The notes beneath the pieces were generated by a model. The model did not search any database and was not told the DNA's origin. It was given only the letters and a program-made list of their open reading frames with translations. A program made the translations under genes and the position numbers. From IMG/VR virus record IMGVR_UViG_3300045809_000028: DNA of 43,405 bases. One strand, given 5' to 3'. Source of the stretch: a virus. This document shows positions 23,023 through 38,514 of this stretch, in pieces; position 1 is the stretch's first letter, and each line of letters starts with the position of its first letter.

Positions 23023-23192
23023 ATTCGTTATTGACGAAGATGATCTAGACGAAGAATACTGGGAAGCAGAAGACTTAGGTATTTACTAAGCCTTTTTATT
23101 TTGTCCTTTTATCAAATTGCGGACGTAAAAGAACAATTTGAACCCACTAATGTGAGGCAACCACGTAGAAAAGCGTATAGGAGGAAAAAGTA

Positions 23193-23783
23193 ATGACATT
23201 TAAGGAATATTTGATTTCAAAAGGACTAACGGAAGAACAAGCAACCACAATCGTTGAGGGCATGCCAGAAAGTAAGTTTTACTTATCAAGTGAGGAAAAA
23301 GCTGATGAACGTTACGCTAAAGTGAAATCACAAAAAGAACAACTAGAAGAACAGTTGGCTACGAATCAATCAGAACTAAACAGTTTGAAAGAAGCTGCTA
23401 AAGGCAATGAGGAATTAACAGCTAAATACAATGAGTTGCAAGAAAAATTTGACAAATCAAGAGCTGATTCCAAAGCGAAGATTGCTGAACAAGAAAAAGA
23501 TTTTTCTATCAAATTAGCCTTAAAAGAAGCTCATGCACTCGATGAAGATATTGTTCTTGGTCAATTAGACAAAGATACTATCAAAATTGTTGACGGCAAA
23601 CTACAGGGTTTTGATGAGCAATTGAAAGGTTTGCAAGAAAACAAATCGTTCTTGTTTCAGCAAGCAACAGAAGGTACAGGAACATCCCCCACAATCACTG
23701 TGGGAGGTAATGCAAAAGGTGGTCAAAATTCTGCTGTCGGTCCTCAACCAGAAAAACTAAATGAATTCAGAATCACTAGATAG
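23193..23783 (+). CDS. Scaffolding protein (GP20-like)
   Basis: 196 aa, helical and E/K/Q-rich coiled coil, immediately upstream of the capsid gene. AGGAGG RBS. Confidence 0.8.
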   Translation: MTFKEYLISKGLTEEQATTIVEGMPESKFYLSSEEKADERYAKVKSQKEQLEEQLATNQSELNSLKEAAKGNEELTAKYNELQEKFDKSRADSKAKIAEQEKDFSIKLALKEAHALDEDIVLGQLDKDTIKIVDGKLQGFDEQLKGLQENKSFLFQQATEGTGTSPTITVGGNAKGGQNSAVGPQPEKLNEFRITR

Positions 23784-27321: not shown

Positions 27322-27903
27322 ATGTTCAGCCTTTACTATCAGCCAGAAGATGTCATAAAAATTGAGGGTAAAGAGTATAAAGTTACGGTTACTTTCGATA
27401 ACATTCTGAAAATCATTGATATGACGAATGAAAAACGATTAGCTCCTAATTATAAAATCAGATTAGGGTTACAAATGTTTTTTGGTTCAGATACAGATTT
27501 GATTGCCTTACCATTAGATATTCAGTCCAATATTTTTAATCAAACATTTTATAATTATGTGAATCAAGGGAAAGAAGAACCGATTCATACAGATTTAGCT
27601 GGTAATCCGTTACCAGCAAATTATAAAAAAGACAAAGAAAATTTTTATTCTTTAAAATATGATGCAGAGTACATATATGCATCATTTATGCAGGCATATG
27701 GTATTGATTTAATCGAACAGCAAGGTAAATTACATTGGCATAAATTTCAGGCGCTACTTGCAGGACTTCCAGAAGATACGAAGTTCAGGCAAGTAGTGTC
27801 TATTCGTATGTGGAAAAAGCCTAGCAAACACGATACAGAAGAAAAACAAATGATGAAATTGAAAGATGTGTATCGATTACCTGATGAAAGCGAGGTGGAA
27901 TGA
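27322..27903 (+). CDS. Phage Gp15-family protein (tail assembly, gpT position)
   Basis: 193 aa. The N-terminus MFSLYYQPEDVIKIEGKEYKVTVTFDNILKIIDM is typical of the Gp15 family found immediately upstream of the TMP. Confidence 0.55.
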   Translation: MFSLYYQPEDVIKIEGKEYKVTVTFDNILKIIDMTNEKRLAPNYKIRLGLQMFFGSDTDLIALPLDIQSNIFNQTFYNYVNQGKEEPIHTDLAGNPLPANYKKDKENFYSLKYDAEYIYASFMQAYGIDLIEQQGKLHWHKFQALLAGLPEDTKFRQVVSIRMWKKPSKHDTEEKQMMKLKDVYRLPDESEVE

Positions 27904-30900
27904 TGGCTGATGGACGTGTTGTAATTTCGGTAGATGTTGATGGTAAATCTGTAAAAGTTTTAAATGGAGATTTGGATCAATTGGAAGGTAAGAGTCAAAA
28001 GGCTAGTTCTGGAATAAAGAATATGGTAACTGCTATTGGATTAGTCAAAGTCGCTAGTGCTGCATTTAATATTTTAAAAAGTTCACTTGATAGTGCCATA
28101 TCTCGTTTCGATACTATGCAAAAATTTCCGAAAGTCCTTAGTGCATTGGGATACAGCGCAGAAGATAGTGAAAAATCTATTAATATGTTATCTGACGGAA
28201 TTGATGGTTTACCAACCAAATTAGATGATGTTGTTGCTTCCACACAACAAATGACGGCAATTACTGGTGATCTCGAAGGTTCAACGAAAACCGTTCTAGC
28301 TTTAAATAATGCCTTTCTTGCCTCGGGGGCATCCACTGACGATGCTAGTCGTGGAATGCAACAGTTTAATCAAATGTTAAGTACAGGATCTGTGGATCTC
28401 GAAAGTTGGAAAACTTTGCAGGAAACAATGCCTTTAGCTTTGCAAAAAACAGCTGAAGCAATGGGATATACAGGTCGAAGTGCTCAACGTGATTTGTATG
28501 CAGCTTTGAAAGAAGGTACTGTTACATTCGATGAATTTCAAGGGAAATTAATTGAACTTGGTACGGGAACTGGCATGTTAGCTGATTTGGCAAAAGAGAA
28601 TAGTCTGGGAATTGCAACAAGTATTGGTAATTTACGTAATAGTGTTTCAAAGAATTTAGCAAATATGATTACGAAATTTGATGAATTTACTCAAGCATTA
28701 ACTGGTAAAACCATTGCTCAAAATATTGATGGATTAAAAGGGATTGTCAATGATACTTTTGGGTTTATCATTGAGCAAATGGATTATGCTATTCAACATA
28801 CTGATGAAATAAAAGAGTTGTTCGGCGAAGCTAAAATAGTATTTGAAGAACTAAAAGAAGTTGCAATATTACTTGCTCCAGCTATATCAGCAGTTGCTGG
28901 TGCGCTTATAGCGTTGAAAATTGCCTCGTTGGTATCGTCAGCAATTCAAATGGTTACTGTTGCAGTCACTGGTTTACACATAGCTATGATGACTTTAAGC
29001 AATTTAGGACTTGTCGGAACAATTAAAATGTTACTAGGTTTTATGGGACCTGTAGGATGGATTATCGCTGCAATTGGCGCTTTGATTGGTGTATTTACTT
29101 ATTTCTACACCACCAACGAAACCTTCCGAAATGGATTGAATAATCTTATAACAACTATTCGTGATGGATTAGTTACAGCGTTTCAATTTTTAATGCAAGT
29201 ATTATCGGGAATTTTACCAACTTTGCAGACTGTTGCGTCTGTTGTTGGTAATACACTTGTTTTAGGTTTCCAAAAAATGATAACGATAGGCTCTGAAATT
29301 GCAGCAATTGTTGTTCCTGCAATTCAAAATTTTGTACAAGCTGTGAAAGATTTGATGGCTTCAGGCATTGATAGATTAGCATCTATTTTATCTACTATTG
29401 GTAATTTTTTATCAGGAGTATTTTCTTCGGGAGTTAGTTTAGCTAATGGATTGTTAGAAAGTATGGGAGGTAGTTTTGGTAAATTAGGTGGAGTTCTCTC
29501 TTTAGTAGTTAGTATGTTAACTAAATTAGCTTTGGTTATATTAGGGGTATCTGGTCCAATGGGTACTATTATTTCATTAGTTGTGGCATTTATAGCTGCA
29601 TGGCTAAAAACTGGAGATTTATCTACTGGTGGAATCACTAAAGTATTTGAAGATTTGCAACAAAAAATTGGGAGTGTTGCTGATTTTATTAGTAGTAATC
29701 TTCCAAGGTTTATCGAATTAGCTACCAATTTGATTACTAGTTTTTTAAATGGTTTAACTGCGGCTCTACCTGGAATAATTACAGTAGCTTCTCAAATTAT
29801 TACTATGATAGTAGATGCTATCGTTCAATATTTGCCTATGCTTATTGGTCTGGCTACTCAAGTGATAACGACATTGGTAAATGGTATAGCGACTGCGTTA
29901 CCTATATTATTATCAGTTGGTATGCAAATCATTATGCAAATTGTTACTGCTATTACGACAGTTCTTCCACAACTTATACAAATAGGTATTACAATATTAA
30001 CAACATTGATAAATGGAATTATTAGTGCACTACCAGTAATAATTGAGGTTATTATCACGATTATTACAACATTAATTGACACTTTTCTTACACTATTACC
30101 CATGTTTTTAGATGTTGGATTACAGATTATAACTACTTTAGTCAATGCAATCATTACAGCGTTGCCAACATTAGTAAGTGTAGGTTTAACAGCAGTAACA
30201 AGCCTGCTAGGAGCATTTATAGCTGCGTTACCGATGTTAATCGGTGCAGGTATTCAAATTTTAATGGCGTTGATAGATGGTGTGTTATCTATGTTGCCGA
30301 CGTTAATCTTAGCTGCTGTACAAATTACTTTAGCCCTTGTGGGTGCTTTAATTGATGCATTACCTCAATTAATAAGTGCTGGAATCCAACTGTTAATGGC
30401 GTTGATTAACGGTATTCTATCCATCTTGCCTCAATTGATAGCTGCAGGCATTCAAATTATTGTCGCATTGTTAGGGGCGTTAATTGATTCATTGCCGAAA
30501 TTACTTGATGCAGGTATTCAATTAATAACAGCTTTGGTTAAAGGTGTTATATCTATTCTTCCTCAACTTGTTTCAGCAGCGATTCAGTTAATCGTGGCGT
30601 TATTAAGAGCGTTGTTGGACGCTTTGCCACAACTGCTCGATGCAGGTATTCAATTAATCGGAGCGTTAATCAGTGGTGTTTTAAGTCTTTTGGGCCAATT
30701 ACTTTCTGCAGGAGCTGAACTGATTGTTGGCTTACTAGGAACACTTCTTGGCTTTGTTGGTGATCTGTTATCTGCAGGTGTTGAATTAATCGTTAATTTT
30801 GTATCTGGTCTAATCAGTGTTATTGATGATGTTGTTTCAACTGCAATTGATATCGGCACAGCAATTTGGGATACTCTTTCAAGTATTGATTTGTTTGAAA

Positions 30901-31376
30901 TAGGTAGAAATATCATAGATGGATTAATTAACGGTATTTCTAGCATGGCAGAAAGTGTTTGGAGCACAGTTACGAATATTGCTGGCGGAATTATGGATAC
31001 AATAACAGGTGCATTAGGAATACATTCACCTTCCCGATGGATGCGTGACATGATTGGTAAAAATATGATGCTTGGCTGGGAGATAGGGATTGACCGAAAC
31101 GCCAAAAACCCTCAAAAAGCAATGAAAGATGCTCTAGGTATGGTTGTACCTAACATTAGCACTGAAAAAGCAGTAGGAATTGGCAGAAGTGGTTACAATT
31201 CGGTTTCTAATACTATTATACAAAATACGTATAACAAAACGGGACAAGACATCACCGAACTTATTAATGCCATTAAGAATCAACCAGTGCAAGCTCAATT
31301 GATAGTAGATGGTGAAGTGCTAGCCGAATCAACTAATAAAACGAATGCTTTACAAGATGCTTTAAGATATTTCTAG
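27900..31376 (+). CDS. Tape measure protein
   Basis: 1158 aa, the largest ORF. TMP-type N-terminal region, hydrophobic Gly/Ala/Ile-rich centre, internal tandem repeats. Confidence 0.9.
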   Translation: MMADGRVVISVDVDGKSVKVLNGDLDQLEGKSQKASSGIKNMVTAIGLVKVASAAFNILKSSLDSAISRFDTMQKFPKVLSALGYSAEDSEKSINMLSDGIDGLPTKLDDVVASTQQMTAITGDLEGSTKTVLALNNAFLASGASTDDASRGMQQFNQMLSTGSVDLESWKTLQETMPLALQKTAEAMGYTGRSAQRDLYAALKEGTVTFDEFQGKLIELGTGTGMLADLAKENSLGIATSIGNLRNSVSKNLANMITKFDEFTQALTGKTIAQNIDGLKGIVNDTFGFIIEQMDYAIQHTDEIKELFGEAKIVFEELKEVAILLAPAISAVAGALIALKIASLVSSAIQMVTVAVTGLHIAMMTLSNLGLVGTIKMLLGFMGPVGWIIAAIGALIGVFTYFYTTNETFRNGLNNLITTIRDGLVTAFQFLMQVLSGILPTLQTVASVVGNTLVLGFQKMITIGSEIAAIVVPAIQNFVQAVKDLMASGIDRLASILSTIGNFLSGVFSSGVSLANGLLESMGGSFGKLGGVLSLVVSMLTKLALVILGVSGPMGTIISLVVAFIAAWLKTGDLSTGGITKVFEDLQQKIGSVADFISSNLPRFIELATNLITSFLNGLTAALPGIITVASQIITMIVDAIVQYLPMLIGLATQVITTLVNGIATALPILLSVGMQIIMQIVTAITTVLPQLIQIGITILTTLINGIISALPVIIEVIITIITTLIDTFLTLLPMFLDVGLQIITTLVNAIITALPTLVSVGLTAVTSLLGAFIAALPMLIGAGIQILMALIDGVLSMLPTLILAAVQITLALVGALIDALPQLISAGIQLLMALINGILSILPQLIAAGIQIIVALLGALIDSLPKLLDAGIQLITALVKGVISILPQLVSAAIQLIVALLRALLDALPQLLDAGIQLIGALISGVLSLLGQLLSAGAELIVGLLGTLLGFVGDLLSAGVELIVNFVSGLISVIDDVVSTAIDIGTAIWDTLSSIDLFEIGRNIIDGLINGISSMAESVWSTVTNIAGGIMDTITGALGIHSPSRWMRDMIGKNMMLGWEIGIDRNAKNPQKAMKDALGMVVPNISTEKAVGIGRSGYNSVSNTIIQNTYNKTGQDITELINAIKNQPVQAQLIVDGEVLAESTNKTNALQDALRYF
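29698..30825 (+). repeat. About 17 tandem 66-nt (22-aa) repeats inside the tape measure gene (x-LP-x-L-x3-G/A-x-Q-I/L-I-x2-L-x2-G/A-x3)
   Basis: Periodicity read from the translation, for example ALPQLISAGIQLLMALINGILS / ILPQLIAAGIQIIVALLGALID / SLPKLLDAGIQLITALVKGVIS. Confidence 0.8.
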
Positions 31377-31387
31377 GAGGTGCAAAC

Positions 31388-32230
31388 TTGGTACTAATAA
31401 AAAAATTAGATGGGCATATTATTGATTTATCTCTAGTTGGAATTAAAACGTTAGATTTACTTATTTCATCTCCCAATATTCAACATTCGTTCGGTAATGT
31501 AGAGGGAGCTATGGGGGCTATTGATTTTGGTTCAACAATTGGAACTAGACAAATTGTAGGGAAATTTCGAGCGATGTCTCGTGATATTCCTACTTTTTCT
31601 TTATTGCGCGATGAAGTATTTGCTATTTTAGGTTCAACGCAATCGTTCTATTTAATTGAAAAAAGATTAAATGGTAAACAATGGCTAGTAAAAACAGATG
31701 GTTCATTTGATATTCCACAACGTAGTATTTTTGGGAATTTTGAAGTGCATTTTATTGCTATAAAAGGTGTAGCAGAGTCAATAATGACAACACAACAATT
31801 ACAAACAAAAAAAATCAATACTAACGATGAAACTTGGTCATGGGGTATGGGATTAGAGACGGTGGATGACAGCGAATTGGTTTATAACCATACAATTACT
31901 CCTACTGTACCAATTAAAATATTTAATGCTGGCAATGTTGAAGTACATCCATTTGAGTCCTATCTCAAAATAACAATAAAAAATGTTGTAGGTACCTTGG
32001 GATATTTAATGTTGGTTAATAGCAACGGAAGTTTTATTTATATTATGAAATCTGTGGCAAATAGCGAAGTTTGGATTTTCGATGGGCCTAATGTGAAACG
32101 TAATAGTCTAGTAGCTATACAAGATACTTATAAGTCATTTATTCATTTAGATCCAGGTTGGAATACATTTTCTGTCACTGGTTGCACATCCGCAACAATT
32201 GAAATTGATTTTAACTATTTATATAGATAA
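31388..32230 (+). CDS. Distal tail protein (Dit, Sipho_tail-like)
   Basis: 280 aa directly after the TMP. TTG start after AGGAGGTG. Confidence 0.7.
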   Translation: MVLIKKLDGHIIDLSLVGIKTLDLLISSPNIQHSFGNVEGAMGAIDFGSTIGTRQIVGKFRAMSRDIPTFSLLRDEVFAILGSTQSFYLIEKRLNGKQWLVKTDGSFDIPQRSIFGNFEVHFIAIKGVAESIMTTQQLQTKKINTNDETWSWGMGLETVDDSELVYNHTITPTVPIKIFNAGNVEVHPFESYLKITIKNVVGTLGYLMLVNSNGSFIYIMKSVANSEVWIFDGPNVKRNSLVAIQDTYKSFIHLDPGWNTFSVTGCTSATIEIDFNYLYR

Positions 32231-32290: not shown

Positions 32291-34180
32291 GTGGTGATGA
32301 AATCAATTGGTCCTCAATGGAACAGACAAAACTTGGATAACATTAACGAAAATTTCAATACTTTGAATCAAAATGTAACAAGTGTTCCAGGTTTGATTGC
32401 AGATACAAAAGATTTAAAAGAACAAGCTATCGAAACTACAGATAAAGTCATAGCATTAGAAAATAGATTTAGGTTTTATGTTGATATTAATTTAAATGAC
32501 TGTGTTGTTGCAGGTTTATATTATATTGGGAGTGGGAATAATCAGAATATGCCTCCAGGAAAAGCTAGCGGTATGCTTAAAGTGACAAGTAGTCGTACAA
32601 ATCAAATTGTACATCAAGAATATACAAGCGCAAGCATAGCGGAGCAAACATTTGTACGTAGATTAAGAGATAATAATTGGTCAGAATGGATTGAAACAAC
32701 TGTCACTAAGAAACAGATTGATGATTTAGAGAAGTTGATAAATGATGCCGAATCAATTTTATCCGACAGCGTACTGATAAATCCTACATTAACGGATAGC
32801 ACTAATGGTTGGACTAGAAATGCTGGAAACCCAATTGTAGTGGTAGAACAAGGTGTGCCAACTTTAATAGCTCAAGGTGATGGAAGTCATCAATTATCTC
32901 AAATGGTAAACTGGAAAAAAGATCATGTTTATTATATGCAAGTTGAAGTTTATGTAACTGATTATGTTACTGGAAGAATGGGATTACAAGCAAATGGACG
33001 CTTTGTTGGTGGAAATGTTATTAATTTAGGTGTAACTCGAGACACGGAAGGTTGGGAATCACTATATACTAATTTTGTTGTGACGGAAGATTATACGTTA
33101 GGTGTCTATTATGGATCTATCAGTTCAGCTAATTTAAATGGCAAAGCTAAAAATGCTTATATCGTTGATTTAACCGAAATGTATGGTGCTGGAAATGAAC
33201 CATCAGCAGTAGATTTTTATAACTTAAAGTTGCCTATGGAAAATGATGGTATTAGTATGAACACTGCAGATGTGTTTAAGGTTTTAGATCATAAAATTGA
33301 TAATATAGCTACAAAATCAAATATTACTGCAACAGATGCACAAGCCGAACAAGTGTTTTTTGCAGAAATGAATAGAAAATGCCAATTGTGGAAAATGAAC
33401 GATACAGTATTTAAAAATGCCAGCGGTCTATCTTCAAGTGGTCAAGTATCTAGTGCAAGAGATATGTTACGCTTGACGTTACAAGCGGCGGGTTCTGAAC
33501 GTATGCTAAAAGTATGGGGAGCTAAATCCTATGATGTTAATATCAGGGGCGGAAATCCTAGGACTGTTAATATTGTGGCCACTGTAACCAACCCAACACT
33601 AGAAGTAGCATATTTATTGCTGGGAGGAAAATCAGGCACATTAGGTTCAACCGTCAATAATGCGAGTGTATTGACTCAAGTAAAAGATGGTACTTACACG
33701 TTTGCATCGGTAGTCATGACTTCAAGTACCACGACATCACGTTATGAGGACACGAAAAAATTGATTGATGTGATTACTAAAAAATTAGTAAATCCTAATT
33801 ATGTTCCAACAGAGACATTTACCGCTGTTTCGGCATGTGGCATTTTAATCCCTAATAATCCGTTAAATTTGACTAATTTGGAGGTGTTGCCGACATATGG
33901 CTATTATGGTTTTAATGAGAGTGCATCGTTACAGCAAGCATCTTTAACTAAAATGATGACAGCCTTAATTACGTTAGAAAATGTATCAAATTGGTATGAG
34001 ACGTTTACAATTAAGTCATCCGATTTAGTTGGAGGCAGTGGACCAACGATGTACGATGGTGACCAGCTTAGCTTTATGGATGCATTATACTTGATGATGT
34101 TACCATCGAGTAATATCACTGCAAAAGCTATGGGACGTGTAATTGGTCACAAAATTATACAAGCAAGAGGATATATTTAA
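32291..34180 (+). CDS. Tail fibre-like protein: N-terminal knob-like region, CBM-like beta domain, C-terminal circularly permuted S11 (PBP5/DacA-type) D-Ala-D-Ala peptidase domain
   Basis: 629 aa. KSG (aa 447-449, nt 33629-33637) precedes ASLTKMMTA (SxxK, nt 33941-33952) and LPSSN (SxN, nt 34106-34114). Knob-like GLYYIG..NMPPG..GMLKV..VHQEY..RRLRDNNWSEW. Confidence 0.75.
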   Translation: MVMKSIGPQWNRQNLDNINENFNTLNQNVTSVPGLIADTKDLKEQAIETTDKVIALENRFRFYVDINLNDCVVAGLYYIGSGNNQNMPPGKASGMLKVTSSRTNQIVHQEYTSASIAEQTFVRRLRDNNWSEWIETTVTKKQIDDLEKLINDAESILSDSVLINPTLTDSTNGWTRNAGNPIVVVEQGVPTLIAQGDGSHQLSQMVNWKKDHVYYMQVEVYVTDYVTGRMGLQANGRFVGGNVINLGVTRDTEGWESLYTNFVVTEDYTLGVYYGSISSANLNGKAKNAYIVDLTEMYGAGNEPSAVDFYNLKLPMENDGISMNTADVFKVLDHKIDNIATKSNITATDAQAEQVFFAEMNRKCQLWKMNDTVFKNASGLSSSGQVSSARDMLRLTLQAAGSERMLKVWGAKSYDVNIRGGNPRTVNIVATVTNPTLEVAYLLLGGKSGTLGSTVNNASVLTQVKDGTYTFASVVMTSSTTTSRYEDTKKLIDVITKKLVNPNYVPTETFTAVSACGILIPNNPLNLTNLEVLPTYGYYGFNESASLQQASLTKMMTALITLENVSNWYETFTIKSSDLVGGSGPTMYDGDQLSFMDALYLMMLPSSNITAKAMGRVIGHKIIQARGYI

Positions 34181-34206
34181 AAAGTCTAGGTTAACTAGGC
34201 TTTTTT
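34181..34206 (+). terminator. Rho-independent terminator inside the tail operon (A-run upstream, possibly bidirectional)
   Basis: AGTCTAG / CTAGGCT stem, 5-nt loop, T6, preceded by AAAAA. Confidence 0.6.
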
Positions 34207-36386: not shown

Positions 36387-36635
36387 ATGAAAAATAGACA
36401 ATTTTCTACTATCTTGGTTCGATTTAACAACAGGATTTACATGTTACTACGTGAGGATGATTTAACAATAACGGTGGCAAGAATCGATTCTGCTTTAGGA
36501 ACCAAAGGTAGTATCTATTTTAGAAGCGATTTAGTAGAAAATTTTTCAAAAGATTGTATTAATTATAGTAGATTGACAGATCAAGAGGGCTATGGAATAA
36601 TTACACAGCTTTGGGAACAATATCTACGGAAATAA
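36387..36635 (+). CDS. Hypothetical protein between the tail and lysis modules
   Basis: 82 aa, ACGGAGGAAAAAA RBS, followed by a strong terminator. Confidence 0.55.
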   Translation: MKNRQFSTILVRFNNRIYMLLREDDLTITVARIDSALGTKGSIYFRSDLVENFSKDCINYSRLTDQEGYGIITQLWEQYLRK

Positions 36636-37212: not shown

Positions 37213-38514
37213 ATGGTAAAAGCTACACATTCGGGCGCTATCGACGCACAATGGGGAAATTATCAATATCTGACTGATATCGCAAACGTTGCAATAAAGA
37301 AGTTTCCTGGTATGCGTATCACTTCGGGACAACGTAACGGCGACCCTTATCATCACGGACAAAGACAGGCGATTGATATTGCTTATCCAGCGAGCGATAA
37401 TGGCAATGCCAAATATTTCGAGGTAGCAAACTGGATTTTCGAAAACTACCCTGACCAAATCGCATATGTAATCACACAAGGAATGGTTCGTGATAGGGAC
37501 GGTTACAGTGGCACTGGTAAATCGGGTAAGTGGGTACGTTGGCCAGATGGAGACCATTACGACCATTTGCATTTAAGCGGATTGTTAGGACCAAATGACA
37601 TCAAAAAGGGAGGAATAACTGTGAGTTTACCTAAACCAGTCATTTTAGATATTAGCGAATGGCAAGTGCCTAGCAAAATAGACTATGATAAAATTGCAAA
37701 AGATATTGTAGGTGTAATCATTCGAGTGCAATATGGTTCGAATTATGTTGATAAACATTACAAAACACATATCAATGAGTTTAAAAAGCGTGGGATTCCA
37801 ATCGCTGTTTATGCGTGGGTTCGTGGTACCAGTTATAGTGATATGGAGACGGAAGCCACCGATTTTTATAATCGTGCAAAAGAATTCGCCCCCGCTTTTT
37901 GGTGGTTGGATGTGGAAGAGTGGTCAATGACAGATATGCGAGGTGGATGTGAACGCTATCGCGCAAAACTAAAGACACTAGGCGTTAAAAAAGTAGGTGC
38001 GTATATTGCTAATCATATGTATCACGGATTAAACCTTGATACCGCCAAATTCGATGGCATTTGGATACCGACATACGGCTCAAACAACGGTCAGTATAAC
38101 GGTAGCAATCCAACTGCAACGTTTGCATACGATATCCATCAATACACATCAAATGGCGAATTGTCAGGTTATGATGGACCGCTTGACTTAAACAGACTTG
38201 CAAATGTTGGTAAGGGGCTGGAATATTATTTTGGTAGCAAGACCGCAACCAAACCAGAAAGCGGAACAACTGTGTCACCAAAAGTCGAACAAGGGGGAAT
38301 CAACGTGAAAACTATTACTACAACCACTGATAAAGTCAAATTACGTAGTGCTGCCAAAGTCGCAAACAATGTAATCGCTGAATTGCCGAAAGGCTCACAG
38401 GTCAAAATTAATGATATTGTCATTGCTGATGGCATTATTTGGGGCGTTCAGCCACGCACTAATAATCAGAAGGGATATATTGATTTAGGAAAACCGTTTG
38501 GATGGATTAAGTAG
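37213..38514 (+). CDS. Endolysin: LAS/M15-type zinc peptidase + GH25 muramidase + SH3b cell-wall binding domain
   Basis: ITSGQRNGDPYHHGQRQAIDI and DHYDHLHLS (H-x-D ... H-x-H). ILDISEWQ .. WWLDVEEW .. IHQYTSNGELSGYDGPLDLN (GH25). C-terminal VKLRSAAKV..LPKGSQVKINDIV..GIIWGV (SH3b). Confidence 0.85.
   Translation: MVKATHSGAIDAQWGNYQYLTDIANVAIKKFPGMRITSGQRNGDPYHHGQRQAIDIAYPASDNGNAKYFEVANWIFENYPDQIAYVITQGMVRDRDGYSGTGKSGKWVRWPDGDHYDHLHLSGLLGPNDIKKGGITVSLPKPVILDISEWQVPSKIDYDKIAKDIVGVIIRVQYGSNYVDKHYKTHINEFKKRGIPIAVYAWVRGTSYSDMETEATDFYNRAKEFAPAFWWLDVEEWSMTDMRGGCERYRAKLKTLGVKKVGAYIANHMYHGLNLDTAKFDGIWIPTYGSNNGQYNGSNPTATFAYDIHQYTSNGELSGYDGPLDLNRLANVGKGLEYYFGSKTATKPESGTTVSPKVEQGGINVKTITTTTDKVKLRSAAKVANNVIAELPKGSQVKINDIVIADGIIWGVQPRTNNQKGYIDLGKPFGWIK

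Follow-up and report, generated by a model that had tools for sequence, protein, structure and literature searches.

What is a D-alanyl-D-alanine peptidase domain with its two halves in the wrong order doing in the tail gene cluster of a prophage? The question is raised by the IMG/VR virus record IMGVR_UViG_3300045809_000028, a stretch of 43,405 nucleotides that was analyzed at its full length and is called the window below. Between the genes for Dit (distal tail protein) and Tal (tail-associated lysin-like tip protein), the window carries a gene for a tail-fiber-like protein (hereafter the fiber protein) ending in a domain of the S11 peptidase family, which a first-pass annotation had described as circularly permuted. 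Residues are numbered from the GTG start of this gene; where domain numbering is used, its first position is residue 340 (nt 33308).

32291 (GTG) or 32297 (ATG) to 34180, + strand: tail-fiber-like gene with a permuted S11 head, 629 or 627 amino acids, from the open reading frame (ORF) list

That the S11 domain is circularly permuted is close to certain, with phmmer, a rotation test using a canonical profile and a profile search of the PDB all in agreement. The last ~285 residues of the fiber protein match S11 DD-peptidases, with the halves swapped. When compared by phmmer with Bacillus subtilis DacB (PDB 3mfd), residues 539-620 aligned to positions 24-105 of the chain and residues 356-469 to positions 110-217. 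The Pfam model PF00768 (Peptidase_S11) matched in two stretches (54.9 bits, cut-off 27.6), and the HMMER check proposed in the first-pass annotation thus returned a split and permuted alignment, not a collinear one. Residues 537-625 matched the N-terminal part of PF13354 (positions 11-105; 39.7 bits against a cut-off of 22). A profile of 15 permuted domains retrieved 3mfd from the PDB with an E-value of 2.7e-23, the halves being swapped wherever two stretches were reported. In the rotation test, a hidden Markov model (HMM) built from 21 canonical-order S11 proteins was used to score the window domain at every 5-residue rotation. The native order gave two matches, first to HMM positions 124-265 and then to 43-126, which abut at position ~125, while rotating the domain by 155-210 residues produced a single collinear match of 192-195 bits. 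The parts of the domain are as follows.

33338 to 33772, + strand: first segment of the permuted S11 domain, equivalent to the second half of canonical S11 (HMM 124-265, 107.8 bits; 3mfd chain 110-217)
33791 to 33829, + strand: linker between the last helix (ancestral C-terminus) and beta1 (ancestral N-terminus), placed by predicted secondary structure (helix 144-161, strand 175-181, domain numbering)
33905 to 34153, + strand: second segment of the permuted S11 domain, equivalent to the first half of canonical S11 (HMM 43-126, 80.2 bits; 3mfd chain 24-105; PF13354 positions 11-105)

The first segment holds the 'F..EMN.K' helix, the N..GL and S..D motifs, the beta3 strand with KSG, beta4, beta5 and the last helix; the second holds beta2, the SxxK helix, a GGSGP loop, and SxN with its helix. 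They are joined by a linker of ~13 residues, at about domain residues 162-174. Because the half-matches abut at ~125 and rotation restores one match, the new termini can be placed in the loop after the SxN helix; in this alignment, they sit between that helix and the 'F..MN.K' helix. The protein stops where the canonical chain would go on, just as had been proposed.

The AlphaFold2 (AF2) model of the permuted domain (window positions 33308-34177; 17 homologs) had a mean local confidence (pLDDT) of 91.1 and a predicted TM-score (pTM) of 0.90. Its elements come in the order helices, beta3 with KSG, beta4, beta5, last helix, linker, beta1, beta2, SxxK helix and SxN helix, which is that of a rotated penicillin-binding domain forming a single compact domain. 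A Foldseek search of BFVD with this model returned a phage DacC model (E 5.5e-4, probability 1.0, TM 0.40/0.50, 165 columns). Judged from the models, this partial match is the half-domain match expected when an aligner that depends on sequence order meets a permutant.

A permuted order could also arise as an artifact, from misassembly, from a frameshifted tandem duplicate or through chance similarity, and we consider this vanishingly improbable. The exact protein, in its 627-residue ATG form, was called on 70 JGI metagenome contigs, and the same order recurs in over 100 clusters (≤50% identity) from different sources. The half-matches meet at a single HMM position and merge upon rotation, and AF2 folds the chain as one domain with high confidence. 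A canonical S11 domain with a misread frame and chance motif matches were considered as well and rejected. In Pfam, NCBIfam and PHROGs, no dedicated model for the permuted domain was found, only split or partial matches, and fragments of the fiber protein in metagenomes are variously labeled 'hypothetical', 'D-alanyl-D-alanine carboxypeptidase' or 'beta-lactamase class A'.

All three catalytic motifs reported in the first-pass annotation were recovered, and the strings quoted there are present, including ASLTKMMT, which is identical between the fiber protein and E. coli PBP5 (penicillin-binding protein, PBP). Along the chain, they run from KSG (447) to SxxK (551) to SxN (606), and not in the collinear order SxxK, SxN, KTG of S11.

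33629 to 33631, + strand: codon of K447, the lysine of KSG (K447-S-G449), from a motif scan
33941 to 33952, + strand: codons of S551-L-T-K554, the SxxK motif with the nucleophile serine and general-base lysine, from a motif scan
34106 to 34114, + strand: codons of S606-S-N608, the SxN motif, from reading of the sequence

These residues are kept across the family. Among 126 permuted homologs aligned to the family HMM, S212 was conserved in 124, K215 in 126, S267 in 125, N269 in 125, K108 in 125 and G110 in 126; the two proteins that lost the nucleophile serine were P0042 and P0064. D52, W70, R145, D239 and D252 are further invariants specific to the family. The members of the window type (class A) share a mean pairwise identity of ~34%. 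The near-invariant catalytic set favors the signature of a working enzyme over that of a decayed binding scaffold, and we think it rather likely that the head is catalytically active. Alternatively, the head could be a non-hydrolytic receptor-binding module for stem peptides or another wall ligand, acting in adsorption only. This would suit the position of the gene, which is like that of a receptor-binding protein (RBP) gene in a phage with no other such gene, the C-terminal and distal location of the head, as in RBP heads, and its pairing with a carbohydrate-binding module (CBM); moreover, many phage RBPs are built from enzyme folds. We nevertheless regard it as unlikely: loss of the nucleophile would be expected in some lineages, whereas it was seen in 2 of 126 proteins, the catalytic set being retained in 124-126 of them despite the low mean identity.

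Homology places the head in the S11/PBP5-like superfamily, and it most likely works as the members of that superfamily do. Its likeness to the low-molecular-weight (LMW) class C PBPs of MEROPS family S11 (PBP5/DacA, 1nzo; DacB, 3mfd) extends over the whole penicillin-binding domain and all motifs, and the family profile matched PBP5 with an E-value of 4.5e-13. It differs from these enzymes in being rotated, with the second half first and new termini after the SxN helix, in being fused behind tail-fiber modules and in being encoded in a phage tail operon. The phage protein also lacks the signal peptide, the C-terminal beta-rich domain II and the membrane anchor of the cellular LMW PBPs: it ends 21 residues past SxN, with neither anchor nor domain II, and no signal peptide or transmembrane segment was found in it, the N-terminus (MKSIGPQWNRQNLDNINENF) being hydrophilic. 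The family profile also matched the PBP7/PbpG-type DD-endopeptidases (6muq, E 2.8e-21; 6azi, 2.8e-20) and the Streptomyces K15 DD-transpeptidase (1skf, ~1e-18 to 1e-19). Like the phage head, these consist of the penicillin-binding domain alone; unlike it, they are secreted cellular enzymes with the canonical order.

When the domain profile was run exhaustively with HMMER on 1.84 billion cluster representatives, 538 proteins were obtained at E≤1e-30, and topology was classified from domain tables for the best 150 of these 538 (50%-identity cluster representatives). The topology of the window was found in 116 of the 150, either contiguous (104) or with an insertion (12); the others comprised 23 proteins with a second permutation, 6 with the canonical order and 5 partial or other cases. 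The 12 with an insertion (P0048, P0065, P0070, P0089, P0096, P0099, P0108, P0114, P0116, P0135, P0143 and P0161) carry a CBM-like (CBM_4_9-like) insert at exactly the linker between the old C- and N-termini, perhaps a trace of the way in which the permutation came about. The second permutation (P0076, P0079, P0081, P0122, P0136 and others) starts with beta5 and the last helix, continues through the linker, SxxK, SxN and KTG, and ends after beta4. Its break, between beta4 and beta5, falls at about position 125 of the family HMM, and the chains end no more than 18 residues from this point. Such forms occur both as ~295-residue proteins and as C-terminal heads of proteins of 475-880 residues. They form one tight cluster, the nearest neighbor by profile-column identity being of their own type in 22 of 23, and their mean identity to the window type is 34%, equal to that among window-type members. 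These sequence comparisons suggest a separate, second permutation event in the same clade.

Many members of the family have domain partners of the tail-fiber kind. In 106 of 114 contiguous window-type members, the domain ends within 15 residues of the protein C-terminus, and at least 150 residues precede it in 79 of the 114. The N-terminal parts match BppU_N in 5 of the 72 scanned; collagen repeats, Phage_fiber_rpt, Mtd_N and CBM_4_9 are other N-terminal partners, and many N-terminal parts match PHROGs named tail fiber, tail protein or minor tail protein. The head studied here belongs to a large family, so far unannotated, of S11 domains that are permuted in nature and serve as tail-fiber heads. 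Tail fibers with S11 heads in canonical order were also encountered (P0148 and P0175), P0148 having a T7-type tail-fiber N-domain. Other architectures observed were a 1584-residue protein (P0049) combining DUF4815, an M14 zinc carboxypeptidase and a permuted S11 head, a protein with two canonical S11 copies in one chain (P0046), and one permuted member with Mur-ligase and ATP-grasp domains.

Three parts could be distinguished ahead of the head in the fiber protein.

32297 to 32386, + strand: conserved N-terminal motif (MKSIGPQWNRQNLDNINENF...), presumed baseplate-attachment segment, which heads the syntenic homologs
32459 to 32695, + strand: knob-like small domain, residues 55-133 counted from the ATG (tblastn; phrog_3971, E 5e-9)
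32789 to 33184, + strand: CBM-like beta-sandwich, model residues ~165-296 (AF2 pLDDT ~85-94)

The first ~25 residues, of the pattern xIGPQWNRxNLDxINENF, are common to the proteins of the Floricoccus tropicus prophage (P0004) and of loci L008, L009 (P0082) and L010. The motif was also found in P0057, P0062, P0073, P0113 and P0125, and several of the members that carry it differ in their middle parts, a pattern that suits a common attachment segment. The knob-like region noted in the first-pass annotation was matched by tblastn to tail-fiber or tail proteins of Vibrio phage X29/phi2 and of Ruminococcus phages (E 4e-4 to 3e-2); in a tblastn search of GenBank phages with residues 1-158, nothing apart from this knob was matched, and it only weakly. 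A homolog search with the N-terminal 166 residues returned nothing.

The CBM-like domain proposed in the first-pass annotation was borne out by Foldseek with the full-length AF2 model (overall pLDDT 73), for which the PDB matches were CBMs only: the hyaluronan-binding CBM70 module 4d0q (E 3e-6), CBM4-2 (2y64) and CBM16 (2zex). CBMs of Klebsiella phage fibers and tailspikes were matched too, the overall range being E 3e-6 to 1e-3 with TMt of 0.5-0.69. On the predicted structure, the middle domain is a CBM4/16-like beta-sandwich. A homologous domain occurs in 58 of 184 collected family proteins, sometimes twice.

The genes and signals around the fiber gene are listed here.

31388 to 32230, + strand: Dit, the upstream neighbor (PF05709 Sipho_tail, E 7e-16; phrog_33, E 4e-33)
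34230 (actual ATG) to 36263, + strand: Tal, the downstream neighbor (PF24650 TT1_Tal and PF06605 Prophage_tail)
34179 to 34205, + strand: terminator-like hairpin followed by a T run, weak and putative (consensus scan; 11 pairs, 3 of them G-C, loop of 5)
27900 to 31376: tape measure protein (PF20155)
36387 to 36635, + strand: 82-residue ORF with no assigned function, the sole gene between Tal and the holin gene
240 to 1418, - strand: integrase

After the integrase, the window encodes a terminase, an SPP1-type portal and an HK97-type capsid, and the 82-residue ORF, a holin and a GH25 endolysin follow 3' of Tal; the window represents a siphovirus prophage, and its host is a low-GC Gram-positive bacterium. 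The closest named relatives, from Enterococcus sp. DIV2402 (P0007), Floricoccus tropicus (P0004) and, for a stretch of the tape measure gene, an Enterococcus phage, point to an Enterococcaceae or Streptococcaceae host. In a megablast search of phages with the late region, the sole match was this stretch, 670 bp of the tape measure gene of an Enterococcus phage at 75% identity, so the phage itself is absent from GenBank. The fiber gene has a ribosome-binding site (RBS), AAAGGAGGG, just 5' of its start. The first-pass annotation had also given it a terminator of its own; a hairpin with a T run is indeed there and accounts for the end coordinate of 34206 used in that annotation, but with only 3 G-C pairs it is weak. 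Promoter-like matches in the region were fewer than in shuffled sequences, and no strong promoter-like site was found 5' of the gene.

The exact 677-residue Tal protein was found on 85 contigs. Its C-terminal 297 residues had no Pfam match, and no recognizable peptidoglycan-hydrolase domain was found in Tal or in the tape measure protein. No other RBP candidate was found 3' of Tal in the window, the usual position for such a gene. With only the 82-residue ORF between Tal and the holin gene, and no hydrolase domain in the tape measure protein or Tal, the fiber protein is the only candidate adhesin besides Dit and Tal and the only recognizable wall-active module of the tail.

The placement of the fiber gene between Dit and Tal is not peculiar to this prophage. 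The order tape measure protein, Dit, fiber homolog, Tal, holin, lysin was found in the window, in L002 and L011, which are one Floricoccus tropicus prophage (fiber homolog of 639 residues, 40% identical), and in the IMG/VR contigs L008 and L010. The syntenic orthologs are only 40-47% identical. In L009, an 842-residue homolog with the same N-terminal motif is placed 3' of Tal, in the usual RBP slot. A locus search with the single protein found one locus, in a Lachnospiraceae metagenome-assembled genome (genome contigs), and none in IMG/VR; with a 6-sequence alignment, four IMG/VR loci were found.

Taken with the modules above, we consider it probable that the fiber protein is a structural tail protein, and we lean toward a virion-borne baseplate fiber with a catalytically competent DD-peptidase head. 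In such a fiber, which would presumably be trimeric, the N-terminal segment and helices would anchor the protein to the Dit/Tal hub of this temperate siphovirus, the small knob and the CBM-type beta-sandwich would bind cell-wall glycans, and the distal head would be a permuted single-domain S11 serine DD-peptidase of the PBP5/PBP7/K15 type. On adsorption, S551 might be acylated by stem peptides that end in D-Ala-D-Ala or are cross-linked through D-Ala-X, with hydrolysis to follow, and the wall would be trimmed or un-cross-linked locally at the site of tail-tip penetration. The location in the virion is inferred from the missing signal peptide, as peptidoglycan could then be reached only from outside, in the particle, or after lysis. 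Judged by sequence, the head could act as either a DD-endopeptidase or a DD-carboxypeptidase, since its solved relatives range from carboxypeptidases (DacB, PBP5) to single-domain endopeptidases and transpeptidases (PBP7-type, K15); the former activity would open cross-links for penetration and the latter would trim pentapeptides.

Several observations weigh against this proposal. A DD-carboxypeptidase activity by itself would not open the wall. The N-terminal ~140 residues, in which long helices are predicted, have a pLDDT of ~30, and residues 1-168 had no Pfam match; the anchoring role is for this reason drawn solely from the shared motif and the synteny. A Foldseek search of the PDB with the domain model returned no PBP or beta-lactamase in the top 50 (best E 0.3). 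Structure searches that depend on chain order may be blind to permuted folds, or the tool may be at fault, and we did not count this result against the fold because sequence profiles match PBPs at E 1e-23 and the DacC model was matched in BFVD. Finally, some members of the family are not phage-borne. P0003 (L003:8001-9458) combines a CBM with a permuted S11 domain that is 62% identical in the head, has no N-terminal anchor and no signal peptide, and lies in an ordinary chromosomal neighborhood between sulfatase-family and MutS_V genes, outside any prophage. P0017 and P0019 are ~320-residue proteins with signal peptides, the latter in a cellular context.

The chromosomal location of a relative as close as P0003 also bears on the idea that the gene is non-structural, a moron or lysis accessory that alters host peptidoglycan during lysogeny or aids lysis. 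The gene has its own RBS and terminator-like hairpin, and it looks inserted between Dit and Tal, which normally adjoin each other, all of which would fit such a role. We find it very doubtful all the same: without a signal peptide or transmembrane segment, the protein would have no way out to the wall of a cell that is still intact, no strong promoter-like site precedes the gene, and the N-terminal motif, coiled helices, knob and CBM are features of tail fibers. In addition, the synteny is kept across prophages whose orthologs have diverged to 40-47% identity, and paralogous architectures carry BppU_N, collagen and tail-fiber modules. An origin by prophage capture of a PBP that the host secretes was rejected, given that a signal peptide is missing and fiber modules are present.

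A more far-reaching reading takes the head to be a true receptor-binding domain that recognizes nascent peptidoglycan, such as that of the septum, by its D-Ala-D-Ala pentapeptide stems before these are cross-linked; the head would bind through the PBP acyl-enzyme and leave the virion transiently or lastingly tethered by a covalent bond. The reading further holds that the fiber-borne S11 clade was permuted at least twice in nature. As a whole, we rate this as quite improbable. Were the first part true, beta-lactams or vancomycin would block adsorption; were the second true, the clade would offer a natural model for the rewiring of an enzyme fold that is permuted through duplication and truncation.

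Elsewhere in the window, the endolysin (37213 to 38514, + strand) consists of an N-terminal region of ~125 residues without a Pfam match, the GH25 domain and a weak SH3-like C-terminus. The N-terminal region has the pattern SGxRxGDxxHHGxxxAID...DHYDHLHLS, weakly resembles PDB 9flh, a 'LysM domain-containing protein' (E 0.004), and may be an extra LAS-type metallopeptidase domain. An Rfam GP20-b RNA motif (23110 to 23177, + strand; 37.7 bits, gathering score 36.2) lies just 5' of the ORF at 23193-23783, which is directly 5' of the major capsid gene. A protein with an Mrr-type restriction endonuclease domain (1586 to 2575, - strand; PF04471, E 7.5e-28) adjoins the prophage integrase and may be a prophage-borne defense gene.

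Among Gram-positive siphophage tail systems, the fiber protein recalls Tal proteins with endopeptidase or lysozyme domains and the BppU/BppA/BppL proteins of TP901-1/Tuc2009-type baseplates in adjoining Dit and Tal and in its modular build of anchor, shaft, CBM and head; the BppU_N anchor itself is present in some family members. It differs in that the window gene lies between Dit and Tal and not 3' of Tal, and in that its catalytic module is a PBP-fold serine DD-peptidase and not an M23, NlpC/P60, lysozyme or transglycosylase domain. A review (PMC6116005) notes that virion-associated lysins usually have glycosidases or endopeptidases as their catalytic domains and that carboxypeptidases are rarely made by phages. 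Among the phages in GenBank, annotated relatives encoded in a phage genome were limited to the 'serine hydrolase' proteins of Staphylococcus phages UHP46 and ZCSS1 (XDJ02811.1), which are 32% identical and collinear over residues 348-626 and thus have the same permuted order. This 439-residue protein, which carries no more than that generic annotation, differs from the fiber protein in its N-terminal repeats and in that its gene lies outside the tail module; the phage is a large virulent myovirus (Herelleviridae, Sciuriunavirus).

Permutants of this fold have been engineered. The permuted beta-lactamase S. aureus PC1 CP254 (PDB 1alq), which appeared in our profile search, and a permuted TEM-1 (Osuna et al. 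2002, cited in PMC3715408) show that the DD-peptidase/beta-lactamase fold tolerates a joining of its adjacent native termini and new ends elsewhere. Both are laboratory constructs of class A beta-lactamases with other break points, whereas the phage permutation is natural, belongs to the S11 branch and spans more than 100 sequence clusters. A full-text literature search found these engineered permuted beta-lactamases only, and neither a natural permuted PBP or S11 domain nor an S11 head on a phage tail protein.

As far as that literature search reached, this would be the first natural circular permutation found of the penicillin-binding/beta-lactamase fold. Because its chains have been opened at two natural break points or more, and a domain is inserted at the old termini in one variant, the family is useful for studies of fold evolution and for annotation, as current profiles report the permuted domain as two fragmentary matches. 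If the proposed reading is true, a PBP-type serine DD-peptidase would join the cell-wall-active modules on Gram-positive phage tails, which raises the hypothesis of penicillin-sensitive adsorption or penetration, and such heads could supply binders or enzymes specific for peptidoglycan stems.

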